The position numbers were made by a program, and so were the translations under genes. Shown in pieces: positions 177-60,176 of a stretch of 64,000 nucleotides of DNA (position 1 is the first letter of the stretch; every line of letters starts with the position of its first letter). The stretch lies in the IMG/VR virus record IMGVR_UViG_3300037780_000034, positions 1-64,000 of that record. One strand, 5' to 3'. The stretch comes from a virus (lineage: Duplodnaviria > Caudoviricetes). Under the pieces are notes generated by a model. It had not been told where the DNA came from. It worked only from the letters and a program-made list of their open reading frames with translations, and ran no database searches.

Positions 177-1028
177 ATGCGTTATTGTGAATTATTTGAG
201 GGATTGAGTAGTATTTTATATCATTCTACGAGTATAAAAAGTGTATTGGAAATATTATCTAGTAATATGTTTAGATTGACTCCTGATTTTGGCACTAGTC
301 GTGAGACAGAATTGCGATCTAGTGATAAGATTTATTATATGAGTTTTAGTCGTAGTCGTATAAATGATTATCGTAGTTATAGTGGTGGCAGTTGTTTATT
401 AGTATTGGATGGTGATAAATTAAATCAAAGGTATAGTGGAAAGAGTGTTGATTATTGGGGTGGAAGTTTTAACAAGGATGAAATGGAAGATCGTTTATTT
501 TCCAAGGATGCATATATAGAGAATGCGGATAATTATATTCGTGAGATACATTGTTTTCCAAGATTATCATATGAGGATGACAAAAATCGTAATTTAAGTT
601 GGATTAGAAAAATATATATTATGGCCAACAGAATGAATATTTCGGTATATGTTTACAGTGATAGTAATTCGTATCGTTTATTAGATAAGAGAAAAAGTGT
701 TAAGTTAAGTTCTTTTGGTAATATTAAGAATGACTTAAAGTCTTATGTTGGTTATGGTCGGGGTCGTCGTAATTATTATGCTGGATTTATGGAATTATTG
801 TCTGATATTGATCGTGATAAATTAAGTAAGGTTGGCAAAGATTTATTATATAAAATAAGTTATGACAGTTATGGTGATGTAAAGCGTGGTTTAAGTGCAG
901 ATATTCACAATGATAGAATGGGTCGGGGTCGTGAAAATTTAGATAAGTTTTTATCTAGGTTGCAGCAATTAGGGATAAAAAATATAGATCAATTATTGGA
1001 TTATATTAAAGCAAGATATGATTTATAA
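177..1028 (+). CDS. putative virion-packaged protein, possible ADP-ribosyltransferase fold
   Basis: N-term MRYCELFE; LYHSTS..VLEILSS, SFS and EMED motifs resemble ART strands; TAAATA upstream. Confidence 0.5.
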   Translation: MRYCELFEGLSSILYHSTSIKSVLEILSSNMFRLTPDFGTSRETELRSSDKIYYMSFSRSRINDYRSYSGGSCLLVLDGDKLNQRYSGKSVDYWGGSFNKDEMEDRLFSKDAYIENADNYIREIHCFPRLSYEDDKNRNLSWIRKIYIMANRMNISVYVYSDSNSYRLLDKRKSVKLSSFGNIKNDLKSYVGYGRGRRNYYAGFMELLSDIDRDKLSKVGKDLLYKISYDSYGDVKRGLSADIHNDRMGRGRENLDKFLSRLQQLGIKNIDQLLDYIKARYDL

Positions 1029-4218: not shown

Positions 4219-4903
4219 AATGTAATACCAATTCACATATTTGTTCTTTTGATAATTTTAATTCAATGCAATAATCAGTAAAAGAATATGGTTTGTCATT
4301 TATCCACCAACTTTTTGTTCCATAACTATATTCAATGGCAGGGCCATCACTCCGGTGAAGTTGGCCATTTATAAACCAACTTTTTGTTCCATCTGCTTCT
4401 TCAATGGCAGGGCCATCAATGCGATGAAGTTGGCCATTTTGATACCACCTTTTTGTTCCATCTGGAAATTCAATGGCAGGGCCATCAATCCGATGAAGTT
4501 TGTCATTTTGATACCACCTTTTTTTTCCATTTGGATATTCAACGGCAGGGCCATCAATGCGATGAAGTTGGCCATTTTGATACCACCTTTTTGTTCCATC
4601 TGGAAATTCAATGGCAGGGCCATCAATCCGATGAAGTTGGCCATTTTGATACCACCTTTTTGTTCCATTTGTGTGTTCAACGGCAGGGCCATCAATGCGA
4701 TGAAGTTGGCCATTTTGATACCAACTTTTTGTTCCATCTGCTAGTTCAATAGCAGGGCCATCACTCCGGTGAACTTGACCATTTATATACCACATTTTTG
4801 TTCCATCTGCTTCTTCAATGGCAGGGCCATCAATGCGATGATATTTGCCATTTTGATACCACCTTTTTGTTCCATCTGGAAATTCAACAAGTCCATTACG
4901 CAT
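4211..4903 (-). CDS. HRxDGPA repeat protein, 8 repeats
   Basis: ORF track; same architecture. Confidence 0.85.
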   Translation of the reverse strand: MRNGLVEFPDGTKRWYQNGKYHRIDGPAIEEADGTKMWYINGQVHRSDGPAIELADGTKSWYQNGQLHRIDGPAVEHTNGTKRWYQNGQLHRIDGPAIEFPDGTKRWYQNGQLHRIDGPAVEYPNGKKRWYQNDKLHRIDGPAIEFPDGTKRWYQNGQLHRIDGPAIEEADGTKSWFINGQLHRSDGPAIEYSYGTKSWWINDKPYSFTDYCIELKLSKEQICELVLHYA

Positions 4904-5243
4904 AGGTCAATACCAATTCACATATTTGTTCTTTTGATAATTTTAATTTAATACAATAATCAGTAAAAGAATATGGTTTGCCATTTATATACCACCTTTT
5001 TGTTCCATCTGCTTCTTCAATGGCAGGGCCATCACTCCGATGAATTTGGCCATTATGATACCACCTTTTTGTTCCATTAGGATATTCAATGGCAGGGCCA
5101 TCAATGCGATGAAGTTGGCCATTTTGATACCACCATTTTCTTCCATTTGTGTGTTCAACGGCAGGGCCATCAATACGATGAAGGTTGCCATTTATATACC
5201 ACCTTTTTGTTCCATCTGGAAATTCAACAAGTCCATTACGCAT
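4896..5243 (-). CDS. HRxDGPA repeat protein, 3 repeats
   Basis: ORF track; same architecture. Confidence 0.85.
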   Translation of the reverse strand: MRNGLVEFPDGTKRWYINGNLHRIDGPAVEHTNGRKWWYQNGQLHRIDGPAIEYPNGTKRWYHNGQIHRSDGPAIEEADGTKRWYINGKPYSFTDYCIKLKLSKEQICELVLTYA

Positions 5244-5646
5244 AGGTCAATACCAATTCACATATTTGTTCTTTTGATAATTTTAATTTAATACAATAAT
5301 TAGTAAAAGAATATTCTTTACCATTTATATACCAACTTTTTGTTTCATCTGGATATTCAACGGCAGGGCCATCAATGCGATGATATTTGCCATTTTGATA
5401 CCACCTTTTTGTTCCATCTGCTACTTCAATGGCAGGGCCATCATCACTCCGATGAATTTGGCCATTATGATACCACATTTTTGTTCCATTTGGATATTCA
5501 ATGGCAGGGCCATCACTCCGATGAAGGTTGCCATTTATATACCACCTTTTTGTTCCATCACTATATTCAACGGCAGGACCATCTGTCCGATGACGTTTGT
5601 CATTTTGATACCAAATTTTTGTTCCATTGGGATATTCAATCAGCAT
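5236..5646 (-). CDS. HRxDGPA repeat protein, 4 repeats (first gene of array)
   Basis: Purine-rich RBS upstream; one repeat has a one-codon insertion (SDDGP). Confidence 0.85.
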   Translation of the reverse strand: MLIEYPNGTKIWYQNDKRHRTDGPAVEYSDGTKRWYINGNLHRSDGPAIEYPNGTKMWYHNGQIHRSDDGPAIEVADGTKRWYQNGKYHRIDGPAVEYPDETKSWYINGKEYSFTNYCIKLKLSKEQICELVLTYA

Positions 5647-5671
5647 TCCTGTATATTGCCTCTATAAATCA

Positions 5672-5703
5672 CACTTTATTATACGACTGTAACCTATGTC
5701 AAG
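5672..5703 (-). promoter_or_regulatory. sigma70-like early promoter for repeat-gene array
   Basis: TTGACA followed by TATAAT/TAAAGT-like box on minus strand; spacing not canonical. Confidence 0.5.
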
Positions 5704-5721
5704 TCGAAAGTCAACAACAAC

Positions 5722-5757
5722 AAAGAGGGACCGACTAAGGCCCCTCTCTTTTTTTTA
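5722..5757 (-). terminator. intrinsic terminator
   Basis: GAGAGGGGCC-loop-GGTCCCTCTT stem with U tail after 5759..6229. Confidence 0.7.
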
Positions 5758-5758
5758 A

Positions 5759-6229
5759 CTATCCATAGAATGCTTGGTGCCAGCGATGTGCCCCGCGCCA
5801 TTGTGACTTTGGGATAGTATCAATGATAATTTCAATTATTGGTTCCAATTCTTCGCTGATATATTTGCGGCGTTGCTCTCCGCGATGCATCATATCCCAC
5901 GTTTTTGCTGACCAGTTGTCAACAGTTTGTTGGCAATTTTCTGTCAAAAGCTTGGGAATATATTGATCTGTGCGGTGTGCGAACTCAGAATCTTTAATAT
6001 AAAAATCTGCTCCGACCGGCATACAATGGTGTTGCGGATTTGTGGAAACGATAAAGGCCACCATACGCCAAACATACTGTGTTGCACCGCTTGCCTTTGT
6101 GGGGCGTGATGTGCGAAGGCGTGATGCACCTTTGCTCTTTGCAAAGCAAGGCGCAGCCAATTCCCATTGGTCTGCTGTCATCTTGGTTTGCAGTGCTTGG
6201 GTATCAATGATTGGCATCAGTGCGGGCAT
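5759..6229 (-). CDS. hypothetical phage protein
   Basis: AGGAG RBS; YVWRMVAF..S....H.CMP motif; GC-richer codons. Confidence 0.75.
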   Translation of the reverse strand: MPALMPIIDTQALQTKMTADQWELAAPCFAKSKGASRLRTSRPTKASGATQYVWRMVAFIVSTNPQHHCMPVGADFYIKDSEFAHRTDQYIPKLLTENCQQTVDNWSAKTWDMMHRGEQRRKYISEELEPIIEIIIDTIPKSQWRGAHRWHQAFYG

Positions 6230-6268
6230 TGTGCTTGTCTCCTGTCCGGTATTGGTTTCGTTGGGGAA

Positions 6269-6297
6269 TCATTACTATAATGACTCCTCAATGTCAA
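6269..6297 (-). promoter_or_regulatory. early promoter with two GANTC sites
   Basis: TTGACA-N17-TAATGA; GACTC 6282-6286 and GAATC 6266-6270. Confidence 0.55.
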
Positions 6298-6307
6298 CCG
6301 CAACATT

Positions 6308-6502
6308 TCAGAAAATTCCGCTTTCACCGATTTCAATATCTTCCATAATAATTTCCCGCACATCTTCGCTGGAAACAAATTGTTCTTCGCTGATTTCGTT
6401 CATGCTTTCAGTGTAGTCTACTTGCTTGACGATAGTTTCCACTCCGTCAATTTCAATCACAAGTTTCAGGATTACGCTATTCCACTTGTTAGGTCCGGGC
6501 AT
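6308..6502 (-). CDS. small acidic hypothetical protein
   Basis: Start reassigned to MPGPNK after CAGGAG RBS. Confidence 0.6.
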   Translation of the reverse strand: MPGPNKWNSVILKLVIEIDGVETIVKQVDYTESMNEISEEQFVSSEDVREIIMEDIEIGESGIF

Positions 6503-6650
6503 TGTGTGAGTCTCCTGTTGCCACAAAGATAAATCGGCCTTTGTCAAAGCCTGCAATATAGTGAGACTGGAACCTTTCAAAGCTTGTCCAGTCATACCAC
6601 AACAAATCCCCACTGTTGGGACATTTGAGGTATATATCACCATATTGCAT
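6489..6650 (-). CDS. 53-aa hypothetical protein (not in ORF track)
   Basis: AGGAAAC RBS, then MQYGDIYLKCPNSGDLLWYDW... to TAA at 6489. Confidence 0.55.
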   Translation of the reverse strand: MQYGDIYLKCPNSGDLLWYDWTSFERFQSHYIAGFDKGRFIFVATGDSHNART

Positions 6651-6677
6651 TTTGTGTTTCCTTTTTCTGTAGTTTGA

Positions 6678-6953
6678 TCAATTCAATTTTGTGAGATTGA
6701 TATTGTTGATGATGAATTTTGCATCATCGCCATACCAGCGAACAACACGATTTGATGTAATCGGAATATTTGTAAATTGCCGTTTGATCAATTCAAGTTC
6801 GTGACCATCGGCTTGCACCATCAGTTGTGCTTCAGCCCCAAAAATATCAGTGATATTTTCCTTGATACGACCTTCACCAACATACAGATAAACATCATAC
6901 CGATCAAGACTTGAATTTTCATATCCGACGATGAGTGCCAATTTGCGATCCAT
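6678..6953 (-). CDS. hypothetical protein
   Basis: ORF with RBS and upstream promoter. Confidence 0.7.
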   Translation of the reverse strand: MDRKLALIVGYENSSLDRYDVYLYVGEGRIKENITDIFGAEAQLMVQADGHELELIKRQFTNIPITSNRVVRWYGDDAKFIINNINLTKLN

Positions 6954-6976
6954 CCTTTGACTGGCGTGTTTATATG

Positions 6977-7008
6977 GAATCAGTATAGTAATCGTGCGCT
7001 TGTGTCAA
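6977..7008 (-). promoter_or_regulatory. early promoter, GANTC next to -10
   Basis: TTGACA 7008-7003, TATACTGATTC. Confidence 0.6.
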
Positions 7009-7083
7009 TTGTTTTTTCGTGCATTGACAATCTTTTTTTGCTATGCTATCTTATGCCAAATAGTGTATTTTTGGAGTATAATT

Positions 7084-7377
7084 ATGGAAGAAAATAATAT
7101 ACAAGAATTTAATATTGTTGATTTTGTTGGAAATAATTTATGTGTTGGTGACTGGGTTGCATTAAGTATGGAATCACAAACCGCTCTTACATATGGAAAA
7201 ATTGAAAAAATAAGTTATGGAAAAACTCAAAAAAAGATAAGTCTTCATATTAAATTAAATATATATGACAATACAATAAAACGCATCAACAAAAACTCAG
7301 TAAGAATTCGTCGTCCACATAATGTTATTAAAATTTCAAAAGAAGTATTAATTGAAAAAGTTTTATGTGACAATTAA
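7084..7377 (+). CDS. hypothetical protein
   Basis: Start reassigned to MEENN after GGAG; TTGACA-N17-TATCTT upstream. Confidence 0.65.
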   Translation: MEENNIQEFNIVDFVGNNLCVGDWVALSMESQTALTYGKIEKISYGKTQKKISLHIKLNIYDNTIKRINKNSVRIRRPHNVIKISKEVLIEKVLCDN

Positions 7378-7421
7378 CGGAAAGAAATATGTGGGGAATT
7401 TCTCCCCCCATATTTTATTTT

Positions 7422-7786
7422 TCAAAGATATTCTGTTCCAGTCCAGCGAACCCAAGAAAAATCACCATTCAAAACATTTCCACGAGCTTTGTTTCGTGCT
7501 GGTGTTTTCCAAGATGCAGCTTTCAAAATGTCTCCATATTGGAAAAGTTTATCTGAATTTGTGTTTACCACAAATCCCCATACACTGTTTCCTGTAATTA
7601 TTTTCACATATTTTTTCCAATATCAATTTTAATATTGTTGTTAAATTCTGTGATCATTGTTTTGTTGATTTCAGAAAGTTCAATCGGATCACGCCCGCGA
7701 AGTGTCCAACGATAATAGTCTTCACGAATTTTTTGCATCAGGGTGTCCAGTGCAATATTCATCTGTTGATCGTCAGTTTTCATCAT
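7422..7786 (-). pseudogene. conserved phage protein split by a -1 frameshift at an A6 run
   Basis: GGA AAA AAT ATG TGA; a -1 shift restores GKKYVKIITG..GDILKA, matching intact paralog 13115..13525. Confidence 0.65.
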
Positions 7787-7857
7787 TGTGTGATTCCTTT
7801 TGTAGTGGTTTGGCGCTGCTTTACCAAACAATACTTTATTTGTGTATGCCAGTCAAT

Positions 7858-7889
7858 AAGAAAAGAGGGACCGAAAGGCCCCTCTTTTG
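7858..7889. terminator. intrinsic terminator
   Basis: AAAAGAGGG.CC-GAAA-GGCCCCTCTTTT. Confidence 0.75.
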
Positions 7890-7907
7890 TCTCACTGAAT
7901 ATGTGAA

Positions 7908-8135
7908 TTAAAATTCATCATACAGAAAATCTTCTTCTGCTACACGTTTCCATTCGGAAACAAATTCGCCGTCATTTTCGTGATACGCGACTTCCACCAC
8001 GTCAAAACCGCCCATATCATCACGTTCGCAGTAGGTTTCTGCCCAACGGATTGCAGCTTTCAGATTGTTGGTGGTGTAGAGTTCGGTTTCGGTGTTATAG
8101 CCGTAGTCACCATAGACGGTATATTCGCGGGACAT
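7908..8135 (-). CDS. small acidic hypothetical protein
   Basis: AGGAG RBS and upstream promoter. Confidence 0.7.
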   Translation of the reverse strand: MSREYTVYGDYGYNTETELYTTNNLKAAIRWAETYCERDDMGGFDVVEVAYHENDGEFVSEWKRVAEEDFLYDEF

Positions 8136-8176
8136 TTTTTTCTCCTATCTTGTCCAAGTCTTGTTTCAGTAACATA

Positions 8177-8205
8177 CTTATATAATGCGATTCGCTTCGT
8201 GTCAA
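8177..8205 (-). promoter_or_regulatory. early promoter, GANTC in spacer
   Basis: TTGACA-N17-TATAAG; GATTC 8189-8193. Confidence 0.7.
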
Positions 8206-8240
8206 TAAAAAAGAGGGCAAATCTGCCCTCTTTTCTTTAT
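8206..8240. terminator. intrinsic terminator
   Basis: AAAAGAGGGCA-aatc-TGCCCTCTTTT. Confidence 0.75.
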
Positions 8241-8257
8241 TTATGTTCGCTCGGAAA

Positions 8258-8758
8258 TTATGCCATTTCGGCGTTGGTTTCCTGCGATTCTTCTGCGACA
8301 ATCATTGCCTCAGACGATTCGGCTTCATCAGCGGTTTCCGTGTTTCCGACATCTGCCAGTTCTGCATTGCCGCCAGCTTCATCGTCGTCAACCATCGTAT
8401 TTCCGGCAGAGGTCAGGCGATAGACCTTCATCGGACGCCCACGGCCTTCACGCGGCAGGTCAACGGCTTCCACAAGCCCCATTTCCACGAGTTGCAGCGT
8501 CAGCACGCGGGAAACAGAACCAGTTTTGTAATGGTATTCACCATCAGCCGAGTCGATGATTTTCAGGGTAGAGATCAGCTTGGCGTTGTCCGAAAAAGTT
8601 GTTGCTTTTCCGGGGCGCTTTTTCGGCGCGGCTTCGGTGGCTTCGGCTTCGGTGGCTTCGGCTTCGGTGGCTTCGGCCTCGGTGGCTTCCAGATCGGTAT
8701 CCATTTCGGCAGCGATTTCGGTGATTTGATCTTCGGTGATTTGTGCGATATCGTTCAT
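8258..8758 (-). CDS. acidic protein with central winged-helix-like domain
   Basis: LTLQLVEMGLVE..GRGRPMKVYRLT resembles a wHTH wing; EAEAT repeats. Confidence 0.6.
   Translation of the reverse strand: MNDIAQITEDQITEIAAEMDTDLEATEAEATEAEATEAEATEAAPKKRPGKATTFSDNAKLISTLKIIDSADGEYHYKTGSVSRVLTLQLVEMGLVEAVDLPREGRGRPMKVYRLTSAGNTMVDDDEAGGNAELADVGNTETADEAESSEAMIVAEESQETNAEMA
8631..8690. repeat. 4 x 15-bp coding tandem repeat
   Basis: GCTTCGGTGGCTTCG units encoding the EATEA/EAEAT repeat. Confidence 0.9.
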
Positions 8759-8814
8759 TGTGTTTCTCCTACAATGTATGTAAGGCGGGATTGCCTTGCT
8801 TCTTCGTGAGACAA

Positions 8815-8843
8815 TACTTAAACCCGAATCAGTGGCAAGTCAA
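8815..8843 (-). promoter_or_regulatory. early promoter, GANTC in spacer
   Basis: TTGACT-N17-TAAGTA; GAATC 8826-8830. Confidence 0.65.
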
Positions 8844-8920
8844 TAAGAAAATCATCGTCAGGGCAACTTTTCTTAATGTTGCATACATACAACACTAACA
8901 CATATAGTAAAAATACAAAA

Positions 8921-8958
8921 AAAATAAATGACTGCCAAAAATAGCAGTCATTTATTTT
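8921..8958. terminator. 15-bp perfect hairpin terminator
   Basis: AAAATAAATGACTGC / GCAGTCATTTATTTT. Confidence 0.8.
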
Positions 8959-8984
8959 AAACGGTTATAATTTGTTTTTACAAA

Positions 8985-9236
8985 TTATACTTTGTATAAC
9001 TCACCATCTTGGATAATTTCATCATAGTAGTTTTTCAAAGTTTCCGGATTGAACAACATATTATTGGATTTTATGTTTTTACGATCATATTCTTTGCGAT
9101 ATACGGCATCATCGGTTGTTGCATTTATTACTACAACTTGATCATAAAGATAAACACAAATACATTTTTTTCCAGCGTCGCAGGACGCAAACAGATAAGA
9201 AAAGTTTGAGAACACTTTAAGGTCACGAATTTCCAT
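8985..9236 (-). CDS. hypothetical protein
   Basis: Start reassigned to MEIRD after AGGAG. Confidence 0.65.
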   Translation of the reverse strand: MEIRDLKVFSNFSYLFASCDAGKKCICVYLYDQVVVINATTDDAVYRKEYDRKNIKSNNMLFNPETLKNYYDEIIQDGELYKV

Positions 9237-9304
9237 CACATTTCTCCTTTGATTCGTTGTTCCATACTTATTATTAATCCCAATGACACAGAATGTCAAC
9301 TGAT

Positions 9305-9577
9305 TTATTTTTTCTTGTTGGGTAACGTATATGTTAACTTTGAAACTCTTATGTCAATATTTTCAAACGGAAATGTAAGAGTAAATAATATTAATGTATT
9401 TTCATCTGCACGAAATATAAAAGAGTCATTAATAAATTGGCTGTCAACAGATTTTATATCTCCTCCACATTCTAACCAAAATAGTTTTACTAAAGCTGCA
9501 TCTGAAAATGAAACAGATTTGTTGTTATGTTTATATTTCATTGATATTATATATTGTTTTATTATATTATTTGTCAT
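9305..9577 (-). CDS. hypothetical protein
   Basis: ORF in operon. Confidence 0.6.
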   Translation of the reverse strand: MTNNIIKQYIISMKYKHNNKSVSFSDAALVKLFWLECGGDIKSVDSQFINDSFIFRADENTLILFTLTFPFENIDIRVSKLTYTLPNKKK

Positions 9578-9579
9578 TT

Positions 9580-9870
9580 TTACCCAACATAATGATCTAT
9601 TGTTTTTACCAAATCTTCCACAAAAATATGTGAAACACTGTTGTCAACAATCCATTCACTTTTACGAACACGAGCATAAATGATTTCATAAAGATCATTC
9701 GCGTGATCATAACGAATATAAACCCAACATTTACGCTTTACCATTCCGCTTGTCTTGAATTTAAGACCATCACCCATATTCACAAAATCTTTTGCACCCC
9801 AAGCAAAAAGCGCCATAGGGTCAAGAGTTTTGATCTGGGTCAGGATGATTTTTGCGATGTTGTTTTCCAT
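9580..9870 (-). CDS. hypothetical phage protein
   Basis: ORF downstream of TTGACT-N17-TAAGTT. Confidence 0.7.
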   Translation of the reverse strand: MENNIAKIILTQIKTLDPMALFAWGAKDFVNMGDGLKFKTSGMVKRKCWVYIRYDHANDLYEIIYARVRKSEWIVDNSVSHIFVEDLVKTIDHYVG

Positions 9871-9938
9871 AGTTTTGTATCACCTTTGATTCTGCTTGCG
9901 TTCATATGAACTTAACGTAGAACCAAGGCACAGTCAAC

Positions 9939-10199
9939 CTACAAAATTTCTTTTATGTTAACTTCTATGTCTTTGTAATCTTTATTAAATTTTTCAGGAA
10001 TAAAATAAGTAAGTATAAATTCTGCTACTTGTTTATCTGTTCCTAATACTTTCATATCGCTAAGATGTGTAAATCCAATATCATAAAGATATGGAGCAAT
10101 ACTATTTTTCCATAAACTAAATCCTGAAGCTATATCATGCGGAATATACGGAGCAATACTATTTTTTATCCGTAAGTTTATTTGATATTGTTTTTTCAT
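9939..10199 (-). CDS. hypothetical protein
   Basis: ORF; internal KNSIAPY duplication. Confidence 0.6.
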   Translation of the reverse strand: MKKQYQINLRIKNSIAPYIPHDIASGFSLWKNSIAPYLYDIGFTHLSDMKVLGTDKQVAEFILTYFIPEKFNKDYKDIEVNIKEIL

Positions 10200-10428
10200 A
10201 TGGTTTTAATTTAATTTCAAAGTTTTCGTTATAAAAAGTTAAAAGAAATTCCATAGCGATTTCTTCTGTTCCGTATAATATAGTGTTAAAGTAAAAAATA
10301 CTATGATCTACTGTTCCACCAAGTTCTTTCCAATACTTTATTGCGATTTTATAAGATTCAATATGGTTTTTGTATTTATGTTTATTATTTGTATAAACAG
10401 GAATTATGAATAAAATATATGTGTTCAT
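10159..10428 (-). CDS. hypothetical protein
   Basis: ORF in operon. Confidence 0.6.
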   Translation of the reverse strand: MNTYILFIIPVYTNNKHKYKNHIESYKIAIKYWKELGGTVDHSIFYFNTILYGTEEIAMEFLLTFYNENFEIKLKPYEKTISNKLTDKK

Positions 10429-10429
10429 T

Positions 10430-10621
10430 TTAAATTTTATTATCTTTCTGTGCTTGTTGATATCCTAATCTATACGCGGTTTCTATTGCTTCTTTTATTT
10501 CCCAAATAGCAACATCGTGAAAATCAAGACGGTCACTGTTTTGGTTTTCTATTGAATCAATAGAGTTAAAACAGTTAAACACAATGTTTTCAATTTGAGA
10601 TTTTGTAATTCTTGTTTCCAT
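10430..10621 (-). CDS. small hypothetical protein
   Basis: SDRLDFHDVAIWEIKEAIETAY motif typical of small phage proteins. Confidence 0.65.
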   Translation of the reverse strand: METRITKSQIENIVFNCFNSIDSIENQNSDRLDFHDVAIWEIKEAIETAYRLGYQQAQKDNKI

Positions 10622-10625
10622 AATA

Positions 10626-10829
10626 TTAATCCCAATCTTTTACATTAGGCCAGCGATCACGAATCCGTTTCATATGTTTTTCATAAAACTGGGTATTGGT
10701 TCCAGCTTTTTCGGCAAGCTTTTTCATCTTAGAAAACCGATTATAAGACTCAATATCCCATTTCCAATATTGAATCTCACGTTCTTTGCATTTCAAAGAA
10801 AACTCTTTGAGAATCTTGTTATCATACAT
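10626..10829 (-). CDS. small hypothetical protein
   Basis: ORF with AGGA RBS. Confidence 0.55.
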   Translation of the reverse strand: MYDNKILKEFSLKCKEREIQYWKWDIESYNRFSKMKKLAEKAGTNTQFYEKHMKRIRDRWPNVKDWD

Positions 10830-11028
10830 ATTATGTTTTCCTATCGGTTAAGATATGTAAGGATATAAGATAAAAAACTGAAGAACAGCACCTACAAAAA
10901 GTAAAATCTTTGACAAAGTATAATTTACCTTTGCCATAAGATAAACACAAAATGTAAACAATGCGAAATTTAGTAACATTAAGTTACTCCTTTTGTCAAG
11001 TGAGATTTATACCATTGATCTACAGAAA

Positions 11029-11316
11029 TTATTCTGCTACCGTATGATAATGTTCAAGGTGTTCATTCACCCTTTCATCTTCGCTGGAATAAAACACATA
11101 TTCGCCAACTTGTGTCACATAAGTTTGGTCACAATATTCAAAGCCACCATAGTAGCGAAGGCTTTTGTTATTTTTTGTGGCGATAAAATCTTCTCCGACC
11201 CAGACCATACCACACCGACGCTCAAGGCCAATCTTTTCCGGTTCAACATAGTCGGCATTTTCAAGGAACTTTGTTGCCTGCTCATTCATTGAACAGATAA
11301 AGTCATCAAGTTGCAT
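11029..11316 (-). CDS. hypothetical protein
   Basis: Start reassigned to MQLDD after AGGAG. Confidence 0.65.
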   Translation of the reverse strand: MQLDDFICSMNEQATKFLENADYVEPEKIGLERRCGMVWVGEDFIATKNNKSLRYYGGFEYCDQTYVTQVGEYVFYSSEDERVNEHLEHYHTVAE

Positions 11317-11344
11317 AGTGTGTTCTCCTAACTGAGTATTCTTT

Positions 11345-11373
11345 CTTATACCCGATTCGGTTGGAAATGTAAA
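11345..11373 (-). promoter_or_regulatory. early promoter, GANTC in spacer
   Basis: TTTACA-N17-TATAAG; GATTC 11354-11358. Confidence 0.6.
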
Positions 11374-11375
11374 GA

Positions 11376-11399
11376 GAATAGGGGCCGCAGCCCCTATTC
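11376..11399. terminator. intrinsic terminator hairpin
   Basis: GAATAGGGGC-cgca-GCCCCTATTC. Confidence 0.75.
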
Positions 11400-11801
11400 T
11401 TATTCTTGAATGTAAGGTTTGTTCCAACTTCCCACATTGAGAGAAATGTAGAAAGCTGTATGAAAATAGTCCGATTGCGAATCACTGTCGTCAAACCATT
11501 CACGCCCATCGGGAACGGTTGCAGGTGCAGATTTGATTACCTCGATAATTTCACGGAAAAGTTCAGCGTGCTTGCCATAGTTGTGCAAATGATACTGGTT
11601 GATTTGTTCATAGCCAAACCCATAATCACCGGGTTTATTTTTCGACCACAAATCAGAAAAATCGGTTTTGCCTGATTTTATGCTAACGATGACTTCCGTC
11701 TTGTTCGCATTGCGAACAGAAAATTTCAGGCCAAGTTTGCCGAACTTTTCTTTCAGTTGATTGCGGATGGCGCGAACTTCTTCAGTAGTGATGTAGGCCA
11801 T
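11400..11801 (-). CDS. LPD29-like phage protein
   Basis: IRNQLKEKF..KFSVR, INQYHL and DSDSQSDYFHTAFY motifs. Confidence 0.55.
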   Translation of the reverse strand: MAYITTEEVRAIRNQLKEKFGKLGLKFSVRNANKTEVIVSIKSGKTDFSDLWSKNKPGDYGFGYEQINQYHLHNYGKHAELFREIIEVIKSAPATVPDGREWFDDSDSQSDYFHTAFYISLNVGSWNKPYIQE

Positions 11802-11836
11802 TGAGATTTCCTAGGTTTGCACTGTCTATGTAAAAC

Positions 11837-11865
11837 ACATTAAACTATTGATTCTGCCTTGTCAA
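11837..11865 (-). promoter_or_regulatory. early promoter, GANTC in spacer
   Basis: TTGACA-N17-TAATGT; GATTC 11850-11854. Confidence 0.65.
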
Positions 11866-11963
11866 CAACAAAATAAATTCATTGACTCACTAAGATTCTA
11901 CTAAGATAAACCCATATGAAAACAAAATAAAATATTTCAAGTGAAATAAAAAAAGAAAAAAAT

Positions 11964-12212
11964 AATTTCTACGAAAACTTTACGAAGTGAAACGAAGTAA
12001 ATTTCGTAGAAATTTATGATTACTTAGGTTTGACTGAAAGGAAAACCTAATGTTCATTTCAAAGAAATGAACTTGATTCAGCACAGAATCCCCCTAATAG
12101 TCCAAAATATGATAATATAATTAAGTAATACTTGTTCATTTCATTCACAAGTATTAGTAATAAAATGATTAAATTCACTCCATTTCATTCCGTTCATTTT
12201 AATCATTTTATT
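11964..12212. other. symmetric cluster of five hairpins; candidate replication origin
   Basis: Inverted repeats 11964-12014, 12024-12050, 12052-12072, 12126-12156 and 12159-12212 with TGAAA-containing loops. Confidence 0.5.
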
Positions 12213-12220
12213 TTTTTTGA

Positions 12221-12525
12221 TTCTCTATGATTCAGGACATACTTCGGCTTCCGATACGCAAAGTATATTCTGAATTAAATTCAGGACATATTCTTACAGA
12301 AAAACCTTGTAAAGTCAGGGAAAGGCGGTTGGGCGATACCTTTTTACTTTCTACTTCGCGGAATGTTTCCGCCAACGCATATTATTTTATCAGCAGTAAG
12401 AATTACCGATAAATTTTTTGCAGGTTGGGATAGTGACCAGAGCCTGCTCATTCAATTTAACTATTATTTTAGTAGAATGCAACATGCACAACGAATCACT
12501 CGGGCTAGGGTTGCTATGAATAATA
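12221..12525 (-). ncRNA. candidate structured non-coding transcript
   Basis: No credible ORF; promoter TTGACG-N17-TAGATT at 12559-12531; locally GC-richer with short stems. Confidence 0.35.
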
Positions 12526-12760
12526 CAGTGAATCTATCATAGTCTAAACGATTCGTCAAGTTTTTTATATTATTAAAGCCATAGTATTTCTACTATGGCT
12601 CATTTTTCTAAGTTTAATATTTAAGTAATTATAATAAATTAACACTCTCCGTAAGTGCTACTTTGCGGCCACGGAGCAACAGCCAATATTATAAAATAGT
12701 CACTAGATTAGTATTTATAGTTTTAGAACCTTTTTATATCTTGCTCAGGATATAAGATAC

Positions 12761-12913
12761 CTATTCTTCTTCACATACACCAGTTATTGCAGCATAAAAC
12801 GCGCCATTTCCATATAGAAATGCTTTTGTGCCACATTGTTGAAATATGTAAACAAGTAAGGATAACATAATAAGTAAACAAAATGCCAACCAGATATGAA
12901 AAATTCTGTTCAT
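12761..12913 (-). CDS. small membrane protein
   Basis: Hydrophobic N-terminal helix; start uncertain. Confidence 0.45.
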   Translation of the reverse strand: MNRIFHIWLAFCLLIMLSLLVYIFQQCGTKAFLYGNGAFYAAITGVCEEE

Positions 12914-13114
12914 AGTTTTATCTTTCATTTTGTTTTGCAGCACCATAAAAAGCAATCAAACAAGCATTTACAACAACAAATGCCCAGAACTGCCATCCGC
13001 CTTCATCCGCAGGATAAGACATAGAGACAACATAAGCGAACAGAAGAGCTTGAGCAATCAGCAAAATCGTAGACATTGTGTTTCCTTTCAGGAGATTTGT
13101 TGTAGCTTACAATA

Positions 13115-13525
13115 TCATACAGAATCACCACTGTCAAGAGGTAAAGGACGATACCAAGTTGCACGATAACTTTCAGGATAAAAAACATTTCCATATGTTC
13201 TGTCACGAAAAGGTTGAAAATAATAATCTGCCTGTAATATATCACCCTTGACAAAATTCTGTCCAAAAGTATTATCGTCACGATTTAATATAAAACTATG
13301 AACAATAGGTTGCCTAAATAGTTTATCCATAGTAAGTATTTTTGTATATTTTTTACTTGTAAGAGTGTCAATCTTTAAACTGTTTTCAAATTTTTGCTTC
13401 ATTCTCTCTATGCTAGTAGTAGGCAAATCATCAACAGGTGTTTCTTCAATGTAAATATAAAATTGTTCTCTTATATATTCTACATATTCTGCTATATAAT
13501 ACGAAATATGTCTGCTTTCTGTCAT
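13115..13525 (-). CDS. conserved phage protein, paralog of 7422..7786
   Basis: SKKYTKIL..HSFI..KGDILQA..GNV. Confidence 0.65.
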   Translation of the reverse strand: MTESRHISYYIAEYVEYIREQFYIYIEETPVDDLPTTSIERMKQKFENSLKIDTLTSKKYTKILTMDKLFRQPIVHSFILNRDDNTFGQNFVKGDILQADYYFQPFRDRTYGNVFYPESYRATWYRPLPLDSGDSV

Positions 13526-13576
13526 AAAACTCTCCTGATAAATTAAATATACAGTTATTTATTATAATGTGTTTCT

Positions 13577-13584
13577 TATAAATA
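13577..13584 (+). promoter_or_regulatory. T4-type late promoter
   Basis: TATAAATA 27 nt upstream of ATG 13611. Confidence 0.7.
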
Positions 13585-13610
13585 TTTGTAATAACTGAGG
13601 TAAATGTATT

Positions 13611-15458
13611 ATGCGATACAATGAAATAAAATTAGTTGAAGATATAGTTAATGAAATTAATATGTCTCCTAAAAGTTTACAAAAATTAACCAGTGTAATA
13701 GATGCAAAGGTTGGTATAGAGTTTGAATTCATATATCGCAAAGATTATGATTATCTTGAATATGTTGATAAGAATGATGTTGGTGCCAGTTCTATTCGTG
13801 GTGTTTTACAATTTTTTACTGATAGTGATATAGAATTAGATAATGATGATGCAATAGAAGAATTAAGTGAAAAGTTAGATGAAGAATATGACCAATGGAG
13901 TTCTGATATAATTGAAAAAACTTTGAATGATCCTGATGAACAATACGTTATAACAGAAACTTTAAGAAAATATTTTTATGAAACAAAACGTGACCCTATT
14001 TTAAGTCAATTGGAAAATCGTATAACACAAACAACTGGATATGAACAAGGTAGTGAAGAATTTCGTAAAATTTTTAGATGGCATAACAGTATGAGTGATG
14101 GTCGTCGTTCTATGATGAATAACGATGATGTATTAACTAATGTAAACAATACCAGTAACAGTGATGAAATAGGTTTAAAAGATTATTATGAAATTCGTAA
14201 ACCTATATATGATAAAATAGATGAAAAAATAACAGACTTTTTAGAGGGGAAAAAGATACCAGAAGTTGTTAGTTTAACAAGTCATTTGAATAGTGAAGTA
14301 AAAAGAAGGTTTGCCAATCAACTTATTTTCTTTAGGGAAAATTATCCACTTATGAGTGATGTTTATAACAAATTTAGTGATGATATACCAGAATTATCGT
14401 GGCCACAAATAAAAAGTGAAATAGAAATTGATGATATACTTAGTGAGTTTCAATCTGAAGTTGGAAGCAATTATGAAATTGAAACAGATTCTTCTATAAG
14501 AGCAGATGATGATTTTGATGATACTGCTGTTGAAATAAAAACAGATGGCGCATTACCTTTAGAACAAGCTTTAACCGAATTACGAAAAGCAAAAACGTTT
14601 ATAGAAAATAATGGCTATACAAATGATACAACTGGATTACATATAAACATTTCTATTCCGTCATTTAATCGTAGTGATTTAGATTATGTTAAATTGGTAT
14701 TGTTATTGGGCGATGAATATATATTAAAAGAATTTAATCGTAAAAGTAATACTTATGCACAAAGTTCTATGAAAGAAATTAGTAAAAAAGCTTCTTCTGA
14801 TGATATTACAACTGCTTTGGTTCAATTACAAGATTCTTTGGAAAATATTGCAGGAAGAATTATACACGATGGCTGGACAGACAAATATACAAGTGTTAAT
14901 ATTCACAGCAATCGTGTTGAATTTCGTGGAATGGGTGGTGATTGGATAGAAGATCAAAGTATTGATAATATTATTGATAATATAAGAAGAATGGTAGTTG
15001 CTTTAGATGCTGCATTAGACCCAACAAAATACCAACGAGAATATGCTAAAAAACTTTATAAATTTTTTAAACCATACAGTGAGTATGATGATTTAATAAA
15101 AGTTTTTGCAATGTATGGAAGTAATAAAATACCAAAAGCTGCACTAAAAAGTTGGATTAATAAATTTAAAAGAAACCGCCCAGTAATAAACTCACAAAAC
15201 TTATATTGGGCATTTGGTGATAAAGATTTGCGATATACTTGGGGAAGTGGTAAAACAAAATCAGAAGCAATGGATAATTCACGAAATGAAATAATGTCAT
15301 TCATAAGTGACAAACCTAATAAGATTCGTGCTTGGAATGAAGAAATACAAAATTGCACATTTTTGCCTATTGATAAAGCTGCTCACGACAAAATTCAAGA
15401 TTTCGGAACAATAGAATTAAGAAAAGATAGAACTACTGGAATATATGTAGAAAGATAG
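13611..15458 (+). CDS. putative amidoligase (COOH-NH2 ligase, GS/GCS-like fold)
   Basis: GIEFEF, ETDSSI, AVEI, TNDTTGLHINIS, KYTSVN, RVEFR motifs. Confidence 0.7.
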   Translation: MRYNEIKLVEDIVNEINMSPKSLQKLTSVIDAKVGIEFEFIYRKDYDYLEYVDKNDVGASSIRGVLQFFTDSDIELDNDDAIEELSEKLDEEYDQWSSDIIEKTLNDPDEQYVITETLRKYFYETKRDPILSQLENRITQTTGYEQGSEEFRKIFRWHNSMSDGRRSMMNNDDVLTNVNNTSNSDEIGLKDYYEIRKPIYDKIDEKITDFLEGKKIPEVVSLTSHLNSEVKRRFANQLIFFRENYPLMSDVYNKFSDDIPELSWPQIKSEIEIDDILSEFQSEVGSNYEIETDSSIRADDDFDDTAVEIKTDGALPLEQALTELRKAKTFIENNGYTNDTTGLHINISIPSFNRSDLDYVKLVLLLGDEYILKEFNRKSNTYAQSSMKEISKKASSDDITTALVQLQDSLENIAGRIIHDGWTDKYTSVNIHSNRVEFRGMGGDWIEDQSIDNIIDNIRRMVVALDAALDPTKYQREYAKKLYKFFKPYSEYDDLIKVFAMYGSNKIPKAALKSWINKFKRNRPVINSQNLYWAFGDKDLRYTWGSGKTKSEAMDNSRNEIMSFISDKPNKIRAWNEEIQNCTFLPIDKAAHDKIQDFGTIELRKDRTTGIYVER

Positions 15459-19567: not shown

Positions 19568-20998
19568 ATGCGGTATCACGAAATAATAAATGAAATAAAA
19601 ATGTCTACAAGTAGTTTATCAAAATCTGTTTCAAATTTGAATCCTTTAATTGGAATAGAGTATGAGTTCGTATTTGTAAACAAAGAACAAAAAAATTTAA
19701 ATATCTCTGTTTTTGGATTACAACAAATAGAAAAATACTTTGAAGATACTTATAACTTAGATGAATTTAGGAGAGATTATAATCAATGGTTAAAAAATAC
19801 ATTTAATGAATATTATCCAGAATTTATTAAAAGTTTCGGTGATTATGCATATGAATATATTCAATATAAAAGTGAAGATGATTATATAGAACCAAAAGTA
19901 ATTGAAAACTTGGATCAATATTCAAAAGTTATAGAAAAAATTGGTCCCGCTAATGTATGGGATGATACTACTTTTGAATTATCAAAAACAGATAAAAACA
20001 GAATACTTGACTTGTATGATTCTACAAAAAAGTATTATGAAAGCAGAATAGAAGATAGATTTTTTAATGACTTTTTAGAACAAAACAATATAAAAACTAT
20101 GCGTGACATCAGAGACAAATATGAATTAGACGTAACAGGATTTGATACAGATGATTTAATTACATCTTTAAAAAATAAATTCAATGCGTTTGTCAATCCG
20201 GTTAATCCATATAAATTTACAATTGATGCAAGTGTATATACCCAGACTGGACGTGCGCCTAAATCTGAGCTTGGTGAGCTTGGTGCAGAAGTGATAAGCC
20301 CGCCACAAAGCCTTAAACAGACCCTTACTGACCTTTCCAAGATAAGAGAGTTCATCAAAGCTAATGGATATACAAACACTTCAACTGGTTTGCATATAAA
20401 TGTTTCGTTGCCAAACTTTAGCAAAGAAAATCTTGATTATGTAAAATTAATATTGTTAACAGGTGATTCTTATGTATTATCAAAATTTGATAGGATGATT
20501 GCTTATTATGCTAAAGGAACAGAAGCAGCATTAAGACAAAAAATAAAAACAAATTATATAGATATATTAGATACATTAGATGTGTTAAAAAAACAATTAA
20601 ATCAAAATGCACATAATATGTTTACAAGTTTATTTAAATTTGAAAAAGAAATAAGCATAAGTTTTCGTGAAAATCGTATAGAATTTCGTGGTCCTGGTGG
20701 TAATTGGGTAGAAAATATAACACCAGAATTTTTAGAAAACACTATTATGAGATTTATAGTTGCGCTTGATGCAGCATTAGACCCAAATAAATATCAACGT
20801 GAATATATAAAGAAATTGTATAAACTTTTTAGTAAAACTAAATCCAATGATTATTCAAATATATCTACTTTGTTTTCTCTTTATTTTTCAGGAGCAATAT
20901 CAAGAGATATGCTACAAAAAAAATTAATACAAGCTAAAGCAAAGAAAAAAAAATTTGATGAATTTTTAGATAGCATTGATATAAGTGAATTAAAATAA
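19568..20998 (+). CDS. putative amidoligase, paralog of 13611..15458
   Basis: GIEYEF, GAEVISPP, TNTSTGLHINVS, RIEFRGPGG, ALDAALDP.KYQREY. Confidence 0.7.
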   Translation: MRYHEIINEIKMSTSSLSKSVSNLNPLIGIEYEFVFVNKEQKNLNISVFGLQQIEKYFEDTYNLDEFRRDYNQWLKNTFNEYYPEFIKSFGDYAYEYIQYKSEDDYIEPKVIENLDQYSKVIEKIGPANVWDDTTFELSKTDKNRILDLYDSTKKYYESRIEDRFFNDFLEQNNIKTMRDIRDKYELDVTGFDTDDLITSLKNKFNAFVNPVNPYKFTIDASVYTQTGRAPKSELGELGAEVISPPQSLKQTLTDLSKIREFIKANGYTNTSTGLHINVSLPNFSKENLDYVKLILLTGDSYVLSKFDRMIAYYAKGTEAALRQKIKTNYIDILDTLDVLKKQLNQNAHNMFTSLFKFEKEISISFRENRIEFRGPGGNWVENITPEFLENTIMRFIVALDAALDPNKYQREYIKKLYKLFSKTKSNDYSNISTLFSLYFSGAISRDMLQKKLIQAKAKKKKFDEFLDSIDISELK

Positions 20999-58799: not shown

Positions 58800-60176
58800 A
58801 TGTCAGATGACTTTTCTACAGAAATGCAAAAACTATTTTTAGAATTTTTACAATCAGACCCAGACTTGTTTGTAAAATGCAATACTATAACACAAATTGA
58901 TTTTTTTGAGCATAAATTTCGTCCAGTAATTAAATTTATGAAGGAATATCATGATGAATATTCTGGCATACCTACTATATCACAGATTTCTGCAAAAACA
59001 GGAGTTTCGTTAAGTAATATTACTGACATTCAAGAAAACGAAAGAAATTGGTTTTTAGATGAATATGAAACTTTTTGTAGATACAAAGCATTAGAAAAAG
59101 CTATTTTGGCAAGCACTGATAAACTTGAAAAAAAAGAATACGGTGCAGTGGAACAGCTTATAAAGCAAGCAGTTTCTATTGGATTAACAAAAGATTTAGG
59201 AATGGATTATTGGAACGATCCAAAAAAACGTCTTGAAGATATTAAAGAAACTAAACCTGCAATTTCAACAGGATGGAAAACTATTGACACCGTGTTATAT
59301 GGTGGATTTGAACGTGGAACATTAAATGTTTTTGCTGCTCCTTCTGGTCACGGAAAAAGCTTAATGCTTCAAAATATAGCATTAAATTGGGCGTTAACCG
59401 GATATAATGTAGTATATATAAGTCTGGAACTTAGCACAAAACTTTGTTCAATGCGCTTAGATAGCATGCTTACCGGATACGGAACACGTGATTTGTTTAA
59501 AAATATAGATGATGTAAGTTTAAAATTAAGTATGATTTCTAAAAACGCAGCAAATCTACAAATAGTTCAGTTACCAAACGGAATTAACATAAATGACTTA
59601 AAAGCATATGTTAAAGAATATTCTACAAAAAAAGGAATTATGGTAGACGCAGTGGTAGTAGATTACTTAGACCTTATGACACCTGCACAAAAAAAAGTTC
59701 CACTAAATGATGTATTCACAAAAGATAAATTTGTAAGTGAAGAATTAAGAAATTTTACGATTGAAGGCAATTATCTTTTTGCTACAGCTTCGCAAATAGG
59801 ACGTGGTGGTATAGATGAAGCAGAATTTGGTATGCAAAACATTGCTGGTGGTATATCAAAGATATATACTGCTGATAATGTAATTGGCTTACACGCCAGT
59901 AAAGCTATGAAAGAACGTGGAAAAATTCAAATAGAATTTATGAAAACCAGAAGTAGTGCAGGAGAAGGAAGAAAGTTAGAACTATCATATGACAATACTT
60001 GTATGAGAATAAAAGATATAGACGATGAAGATAACAATAATACTTCTCAATCCACACAACCTTCTATATATGATAAATTAAAAGCAAAATCTTCAAATAA
60101 CGATGCACCCGAACCAAAAAGTGACAGTAATATAGACATAAATAAGCTTAAATCTATATTAAAACGAAGAGATTAA
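58800..60176 (+). CDS. gp41: replicative DnaB-like helicase
   Basis: AAPSGHGKS, YISLE, VVDYLD, TASQ, SKIYTAD, KTR. Confidence 0.9.
   Translation: MSDDFSTEMQKLFLEFLQSDPDLFVKCNTITQIDFFEHKFRPVIKFMKEYHDEYSGIPTISQISAKTGVSLSNITDIQENERNWFLDEYETFCRYKALEKAILASTDKLEKKEYGAVEQLIKQAVSIGLTKDLGMDYWNDPKKRLEDIKETKPAISTGWKTIDTVLYGGFERGTLNVFAAPSGHGKSLMLQNIALNWALTGYNVVYISLELSTKLCSMRLDSMLTGYGTRDLFKNIDDVSLKLSMISKNAANLQIVQLPNGININDLKAYVKEYSTKKGIMVDAVVVDYLDLMTPAQKKVPLNDVFTKDKFVSEELRNFTIEGNYLFATASQIGRGGIDEAEFGMQNIAGGISKIYTADNVIGLHASKAMKERGKIQIEFMKTRSSAGEGRKLELSYDNTCMRIKDIDDEDNNNTSQSTQPSIYDKLKAKSSNNDAPEPKSDSNIDINKLKSILKRRD

Follow-up and report, generated by a model that had tools for sequence, protein, structure and literature searches.

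The plasmids ColE1 and pMB1 start replication from a pre-primer, RNA II, which is processed by RNase H; extension of the primer exposes ssiA (n'-pas), where the primosome is loaded, and a site further downstream, ssiB, acts for the other strand (PMC3167613). Phage T4 has several transcript-primed origins, such as oriF and oriG, with the non-template strand as the point of entry for helicase and primase; it also has gp59, and its R-loops are sequence-independent (PMC3016281). Mini-hairpins with GNA or GNNA loops, mostly closed by C-G, are strand-specific priming or polymerase signals at the G4 origin, at the two RSF1010 sites ssiA and ssiB, and at the N4 vRNAP promoter (PMC13037366, PMC8567376), and those with GNA loops are far more stable as DNA than as RNA (PMC13037366). 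We analyzed a jumbo-phage locus in which a predicted structured RNA and hairpins of the GNA kind stand together.

The window, which is the whole stretch of 64,000 nt that was analyzed, comprises bases 1-64000 of a 317,722-nt linear viral contig that is about 85% complete. The terminase was 55% identical to that of Pseudomonas phage PA5oct, 50% to that of Atu_ph07, and 44% to those of 121Q and GAP32, and the phage was therefore assigned to the Rak2/PA5oct-type jumbo myophages. Its gene products include a DnaB-type helicase (58800-60176) and a Toprim primase, together with a family B DNA polymerase (polB) and an exonuclease (5'-3') of the T4 RNase H type. The polymerase match was divided between two reading frames (764 and 338 aa; genome 211.4-214.3 kb, minus strand), and PA5oct showed the same division. 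The gp59_N domain, for which T4 was positive, was not detected in this genome or in PA5oct, 121Q, or GAP32. RNase HI and PriA genes were not found in this 85%-complete genome, and a PriA-3'BD search of the phage was negative.

The sequence-only reading had singled out positions 11882-12212 as a very AT-rich, ORF-free array of five hairpins. All five were confirmed as perfect inverted repeats with the quoted loops on the strands it had given, and no ORF of 40 aa or more was present between 11802 and 12226. The GC content was low (25%, compared with 31% for the genome), but this is merely the 10th percentile, so that the AT-richness is moderate. Dinucleotide shuffles (n = 2000) contained a mean of 0.48 and a maximum of 3 such hairpins, and five were reached in none of the 2000. 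The DNA fold z-scores of the cluster were -4.8 and -4.9, and its hairpin density was the second highest in the genome. The cluster adjoins, on its left, a 133-aa gene with an LPD29 polyvalent-protein domain (11400-11801, minus strand). Another neighbour, the gene at 13611-15458, is a weak Amidoligase_2 match for which no viral relatives were found, and it looks like the gene at 19568-20998 (both plus strand). Elsewhere in the window, two tandem small genes made of repeated HRxDGPA units were present at 4896-5646 (minus strand), and two perfect hairpins (15 and 10 bp), probably terminators, were present in the intergenic stretch 8921-8989. The features of the locus are as follows.

11933 to 11948, plus strand: small 6-bp hairpin from DNA folding
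11944 to 11963, plus strand: A-rich tract before the left module, the same as ahead of other modules
11964 to 12014, plus strand: long rod of the left (orphan) module; 13-bp inverted-repeat stem, GAA/GAA zipper, 2 bp, GAA triloop; no upstream leader RNA
12024 to 12050, plus strand: short rod of the left (orphan) module; 8-bp inverted-repeat stem, GA-CT-GAA-AG-GA apex
12052 to 12072: central perfect hairpin (9 bp) with C-NNN-G triloop; similar to the hairpin in second place in many relatives; read on the minus strand, also terminator-like
12075 to 12090: small 5-bp hairpin from DNA folding
12126 to 12156, minus strand: short rod of the right module; 10-bp inverted-repeat stem, GA-AT-GAA-AT-GA apex
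12159 to 12212, minus strand: long rod of the right module (15-bp inverted repeat); stem, tandem GA, 2 bp, GGA/GGA zipper, 2 bp, GAA triloop
12204 to 12222, minus strand: A-rich tract before the right module, common to other genomic copies
12230 to 12275, minus strand: terminal hairpin of the leader, no U-tract after it
12230 to 12524, minus strand: structured leader RNA of family A, candidate pre-primer of about 300 nt, ends approximate
12324 to 12346, minus strand: most conserved core of the leader, with a GGTA-N6-ACCGCC box
12531 to 12559, minus strand: predicted sigma70-type promoter, -35 TTGACG and extended -10, 9/12 consensus match; probable driver of the leader RNA

Folding by standard rules was equal on both strands because the stems are pure Watson-Crick. 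A TGAAA-centred loop motif had been proposed as the common element, but the element actually shared is a non-canonical fold with covarying inner pairs. The predicted rod has, on the purine-rich strand, tandem G·A pairs or a 3x3 GRA/GRA zipper, then two Watson-Crick pairs, and then a GNA triloop. The purine "loops" are thus predicted not to be open, since on one strand only they can be closed by G·A pairs and GNA triloops, and the complementary strand would stay an open pyrimidine loop. Closure on one strand only would be a signature of single-stranded DNA, given the predicted rod fold. A TRAP/Hfq-like RNA repeat reading was dropped because the covariation preserves inner pairs and not a repeat.

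We searched the whole genome for the rod geometry, using a detector devised after these hairpins had been inspected. Exactly ten rods were found, forming five long-plus-short modules that are all non-coding, and the reversed genome gave none. The modules are located as follows.

11964 to 12050, plus strand: left module of the cluster
12212 to 12126, minus strand: right module of the cluster
120659 to 120746, plus strand: module
252208 to 252293, plus strand: module
314857 to 314770, minus strand: module

Only stemmed rods were counted, because the bare 11-nt apex without a stem arises at chance level (16 matches vs 10 in the reversed genome). The module stems differ in sequence, and the inner 2-bp stems covary (CT/AG, AT/AT, AC/GT, and GT/AC). 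The cluster thus consists of two copies of a dispersed module, turned towards each other on either side of a perfect triloop hairpin. The strict detector is insensitive, recovering 8 of 47 family-A modules (antisense 0) and 13 of 20 family-B modules. Across about 110 nt the 120-kb and 315-kb modules are near-identical, in opposite orientation and with different leaders, which points to a recent duplication or conversion. An unrelated small phage carried two hairpins with the same GA-AC-GTA-GT-GA apex (51-92 and 398-437, minus strand), and a probable gene start follows shortly after each.

Four of the five modules, the right-hand one here included, have a promoter, a conserved leader, and an A-tract ahead of them on the same strand, and the genome has four cassettes of promoter, leader, and module. 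A profile built from 37 other phage loci matched just these four leaders in the genome (window copy 12453-12286, minus strand, E 2e-20), and the left module had no leader in this search. Two promoters had been thought to aim at the hairpins. The minus-strand one at 12559 does match the consensus with an extended -10, but it points first into the structured RNA and not straight into the hairpins, while the plus-strand one at 11882 has a -35-like hexamer and no -10. Compensatory change was seen at 17 of the 29 predicted leader pairs, with G-U pairs kept and the window copy included, and on this comparative evidence the leader is an RNA. A T-run after the last leader hairpin was present in 0 of 46 leaders. 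In a terminator scan for a GC-rich stem with a U-tract, the central hairpin alone passed, on the minus strand, and the four rods failed. About four tandem 12-nt AT-rich units, iteron-like, were present between promoter and leader of the 252-kb cassette (genome about 251.65 kb).

Loci were also retrieved by leader motifs and not by hairpins, which gave the 46 leaders, this genome contributing 4. Behind these leaders, the sense strand had 47 GNA, 13 GNYA, and 4 GNRA apical loops, 45 of them C-G closed, compared with 6 GNA loops on the antisense strand and 1 in the leaders' own sense strand. In the module stems, A·G exceeded C·T (78:21 and 81:7), an excess for which an A-rich strand may account in part, and G·T was close to A·C (43:36 and 21:18). 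Family-A leaders and modules could not be told apart by a crude G·T test.

The cultured phages 121Q, GAP32, XaC1, and PA5oct hold 3-5 such cassettes each, mostly evenly spaced. In 121Q, GAP32, and XaC1 there were 4-5 copies of a second leader family, B, every copy on the plus strand, and in 121Q GNA-capped twin hairpins were present at the end of all four copies. Of 72 matching cultured records, most had 4-5 places. Leader B had no match in Atu_ph07 or Phosso and was not found in plasmids, and a search of GTDB genomes did not recover the family-A core. Copy spacing was more even than random in GAP32 (P = 0.001), XaC1 (P = 0.022), and 121Q (P = 0.024) and not even in PA5oct (P = 0.36), these phages being related and not independent samples. 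One copy is syntenic, between the resolvase and baseplate hub genes, in this phage, PA5oct, 121Q, GAP32, XaC1, and G008, and the synteny holds even where the leader family differs. At the G008 site (130.5-131.0 kb) the leader lies outside both tested profiles, yet the same twin hairpins stand at its end. The modules occur behind at least three leader families with no mutual similarity detected. A blastn search of the region against cultured phages gave chance matches only, and exact scans for the window rods gave no convincing relative. A full 121Q-type leader with GA rods was also present in E. coli, in an island of about 10 kb inserted at ffs (4752-15300 of its record), which carries an integrase and is possibly a satellite of Rak2-like phages; Pfam showed no replication domain in four of its unknown genes.

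In PA5oct, three related leaders were found, with twin hairpins after each. Its RNA-seq-annotated ncRNA004 (246116-246734) ends about 40 nt before the rod; among the leaders, transcription was seen only for this PA5oct one, which is of a different family from the window leader. The share of ncRNA004 among phage reads was 0.08, 0.03, and 0.02%, scarce and declining, in comparison with 1-5% for ncRNA001/002 (PMC7318152). The latter two end in U-tract terminators, and tandem pyrimidine-rich short repeats are located directly after the ncRNA001 terminator (8540-8700).

The main alternative to an origin is that the leaders are multi-copy genes of a large functional RNA (GOLLD/ROOL-like, Polynucleobacter-1-containing), with the hairpins as its 3' domain or as a termination or processing signal and with no replication role. 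The strong leader covariation with G-U pairs agrees with this, as does the module lying at the terminator position with a terminator-like central hairpin. Tandem G·A pairs, which would also suit such an RNA, are common in RNA. The Polynucleobacter-1 RNA motif (RF01718; PMC2864571) formed the 5' part of the leader in 13 of the 20 family-A loci of related phages (e.g. 2498-2643 of one locus), and this too is in keeping with a functional RNA. The Rfam model spans just 141 nt and leaves the hairpin module outside, and the Rfam search gave no match in the window copy, where RF01718 was not above the gathering score, or in its three sister copies. However, the module persists while the leader families differ, the left module has no RNA, and the PA5oct RNA is scarce and ends before the rod. 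The apical loops are moreover GNA/GNYA and not GNRA, and such mini-hairpins are much less stable as RNA (PMC13037366). These observations make a purely RNA-level function unlikely in our judgement.

The hairpins could instead be other single-stranded DNA signals, acting in fork re-priming or pausing, in recombination or the cutting of cruciforms (by gp46/47 or the resolvase), or as N4-type hairpin promoters of the genes downstream. GNA hairpins do act as N4 promoters (PMC13037366), one copy is syntenic beside gp46/47 and the resolvase, and some modules shortly precede a gene start. However, the modules are tightly coupled to a same-strand non-coding RNA that precedes them, PA5oct uses the host RNA polymerase (PMC7318152), and the facing modules here have no gene between them. 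Neither RepB' nor a virion RNA polymerase was identified in this phage. We regard this set of roles as quite improbable.

The sequence-only reading had favoured a mirror-symmetric bidirectional origin around the central hairpin, with a packaging site as the alternative. Facing modules would give the geometry for two 5'-3' helicases to pass each other, ColE1 ssiB likewise serves the other strand further downstream (PMC3167613), and an opposite-strand GNA loop was present in 12 of 47 relatives. However, among about 64 related RNA copies examined there was no genuine opposite-strand module, and the facing pair was unique to this site. Relatives kept the twin hairpin module but not the mirror arrangement, and the mirror symmetry is a local peculiarity and not a defining feature. 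The cumulative GC skew had its minimum at 39.8 kb, not at 12 kb, and followed gene strand. Given that relatives do not share the symmetry, that the left promoter finds no support, and that the skew gives no signal here, "bidirectional" remains speculative. A packaging or terminus site, expected singly and at a genome end, would hardly suit five dispersed copies. An origin defined by symmetry, or a packaging or terminus site, is thus very improbable.

The explanation that we favour, with moderate confidence, is that the cluster forms the DNA component of a ColE1-like, RNA-primed origin whose displaced strand would show loading signals for helicase or primase. The cassette has the same order of parts as ColE1: a predicted promoter, a long structured RNA (here about 300 nt, without a U-tract terminator), then, past an A-rich tract and downstream of the RNA end, an n'-pas-like single-stranded DNA signal in the form of twin rods on the RNA-sense strand only, and a second, other-strand signal further on. 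A sequence scan of ColE1 found the same GA-NN-GNA-NN-GA apex once, at 1332 on the RNA II strand, about 135 nt past what we take to be the RNA/DNA switch. We placed ssiA on this apex, presuming that it lies about 120-180 nt past the switch. No sequence similarity to RNA II was detected in the phage leaders, and Rfam RNAI was found in ColE1 and in none of them. The phage cassettes also differ from ColE1 in having AT-rich twin rods, in occurring several times per genome, and in belonging to a lytic phage that encodes polB, helicase, and primase of its own. The cassette most likely works like a ColE1 primer-plus-pas origin and is not a member of that family.

T4, which had been offered as the model, was a poorer match, since it has no such GA-rod hairpins and its R-loops do not depend on sequence, whereas the phage cassette is conserved in both sequence and structure. 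In comparison with the G4, RSF1010, and N4 mini-hairpins, the phage rods are long, contain tandem GA and 3x3 purine zippers, and are coupled to an RNA that lies upstream. The part of the earlier proposal that stood is that of strand-specific loading sites served by a promoter-driven primer, which fits the polarity, the DNA-type loops, the place behind a conserved RNA, the 3-5 spaced copies, and the ColE1 parallel.

In such an origin, the leader RNA would form an R-loop, be trimmed by the encoded 5'-3' exonuclease or by host RNase H, and prime leading-strand synthesis leftwards. The displaced minus strand would fold the hairpins at 12212-12126, which may load the phage helicase and primase or the host primosome, and loading by hairpin would operate in phages without a detectable gp59 loader. 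The left module adds an opposite-strand copy peculiar to this site and may, speculatively, act like ssiB or load a return fork. Several points count against the RNA-primed origin. There is no GC-skew inflection at any cassette, and the complexity of the leaders, many of which include the Polynucleobacter-1 domain, goes far beyond the obvious needs of a primer. The insensitivity of the strict detector and its design after the fact, the crude G·T test, the uneven spacing in PA5oct, the failure to find RNase HI or PriA genes in the 85%-complete genome, and the lack of a leader-B match in Atu_ph07 and Phosso also count against it.

The element is real and clade-wide. No description of the cassette was found in a literature search that reached few of the subscription papers, and within that literature this large clade of jumbo phages, some of them therapy candidates, had no described replication origin. 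The analysis names candidate sites in the cultured E. coli phage 121Q, at about 90.3, 192.8, 247.5, and 326.6 kb. A wider and doubtful proposal is that Rak2/PA5oct-type phages replicate from 3-5 evenly spaced ColE1-like origins at which a large structured RNA acts as primer and the G·A-zipped hairpin pair replaces gp59, that this locus is a rare version made bidirectional by its second, opposite-strand pair, and that small chromosomal islands are copied by the phage through the cassette. If the origin reading is true, it would give a biological role to G·A-zipper and GNA DNA folds, which are known mostly from biophysics, and a possible function to the orphan Polynucleobacter-1 RNA.
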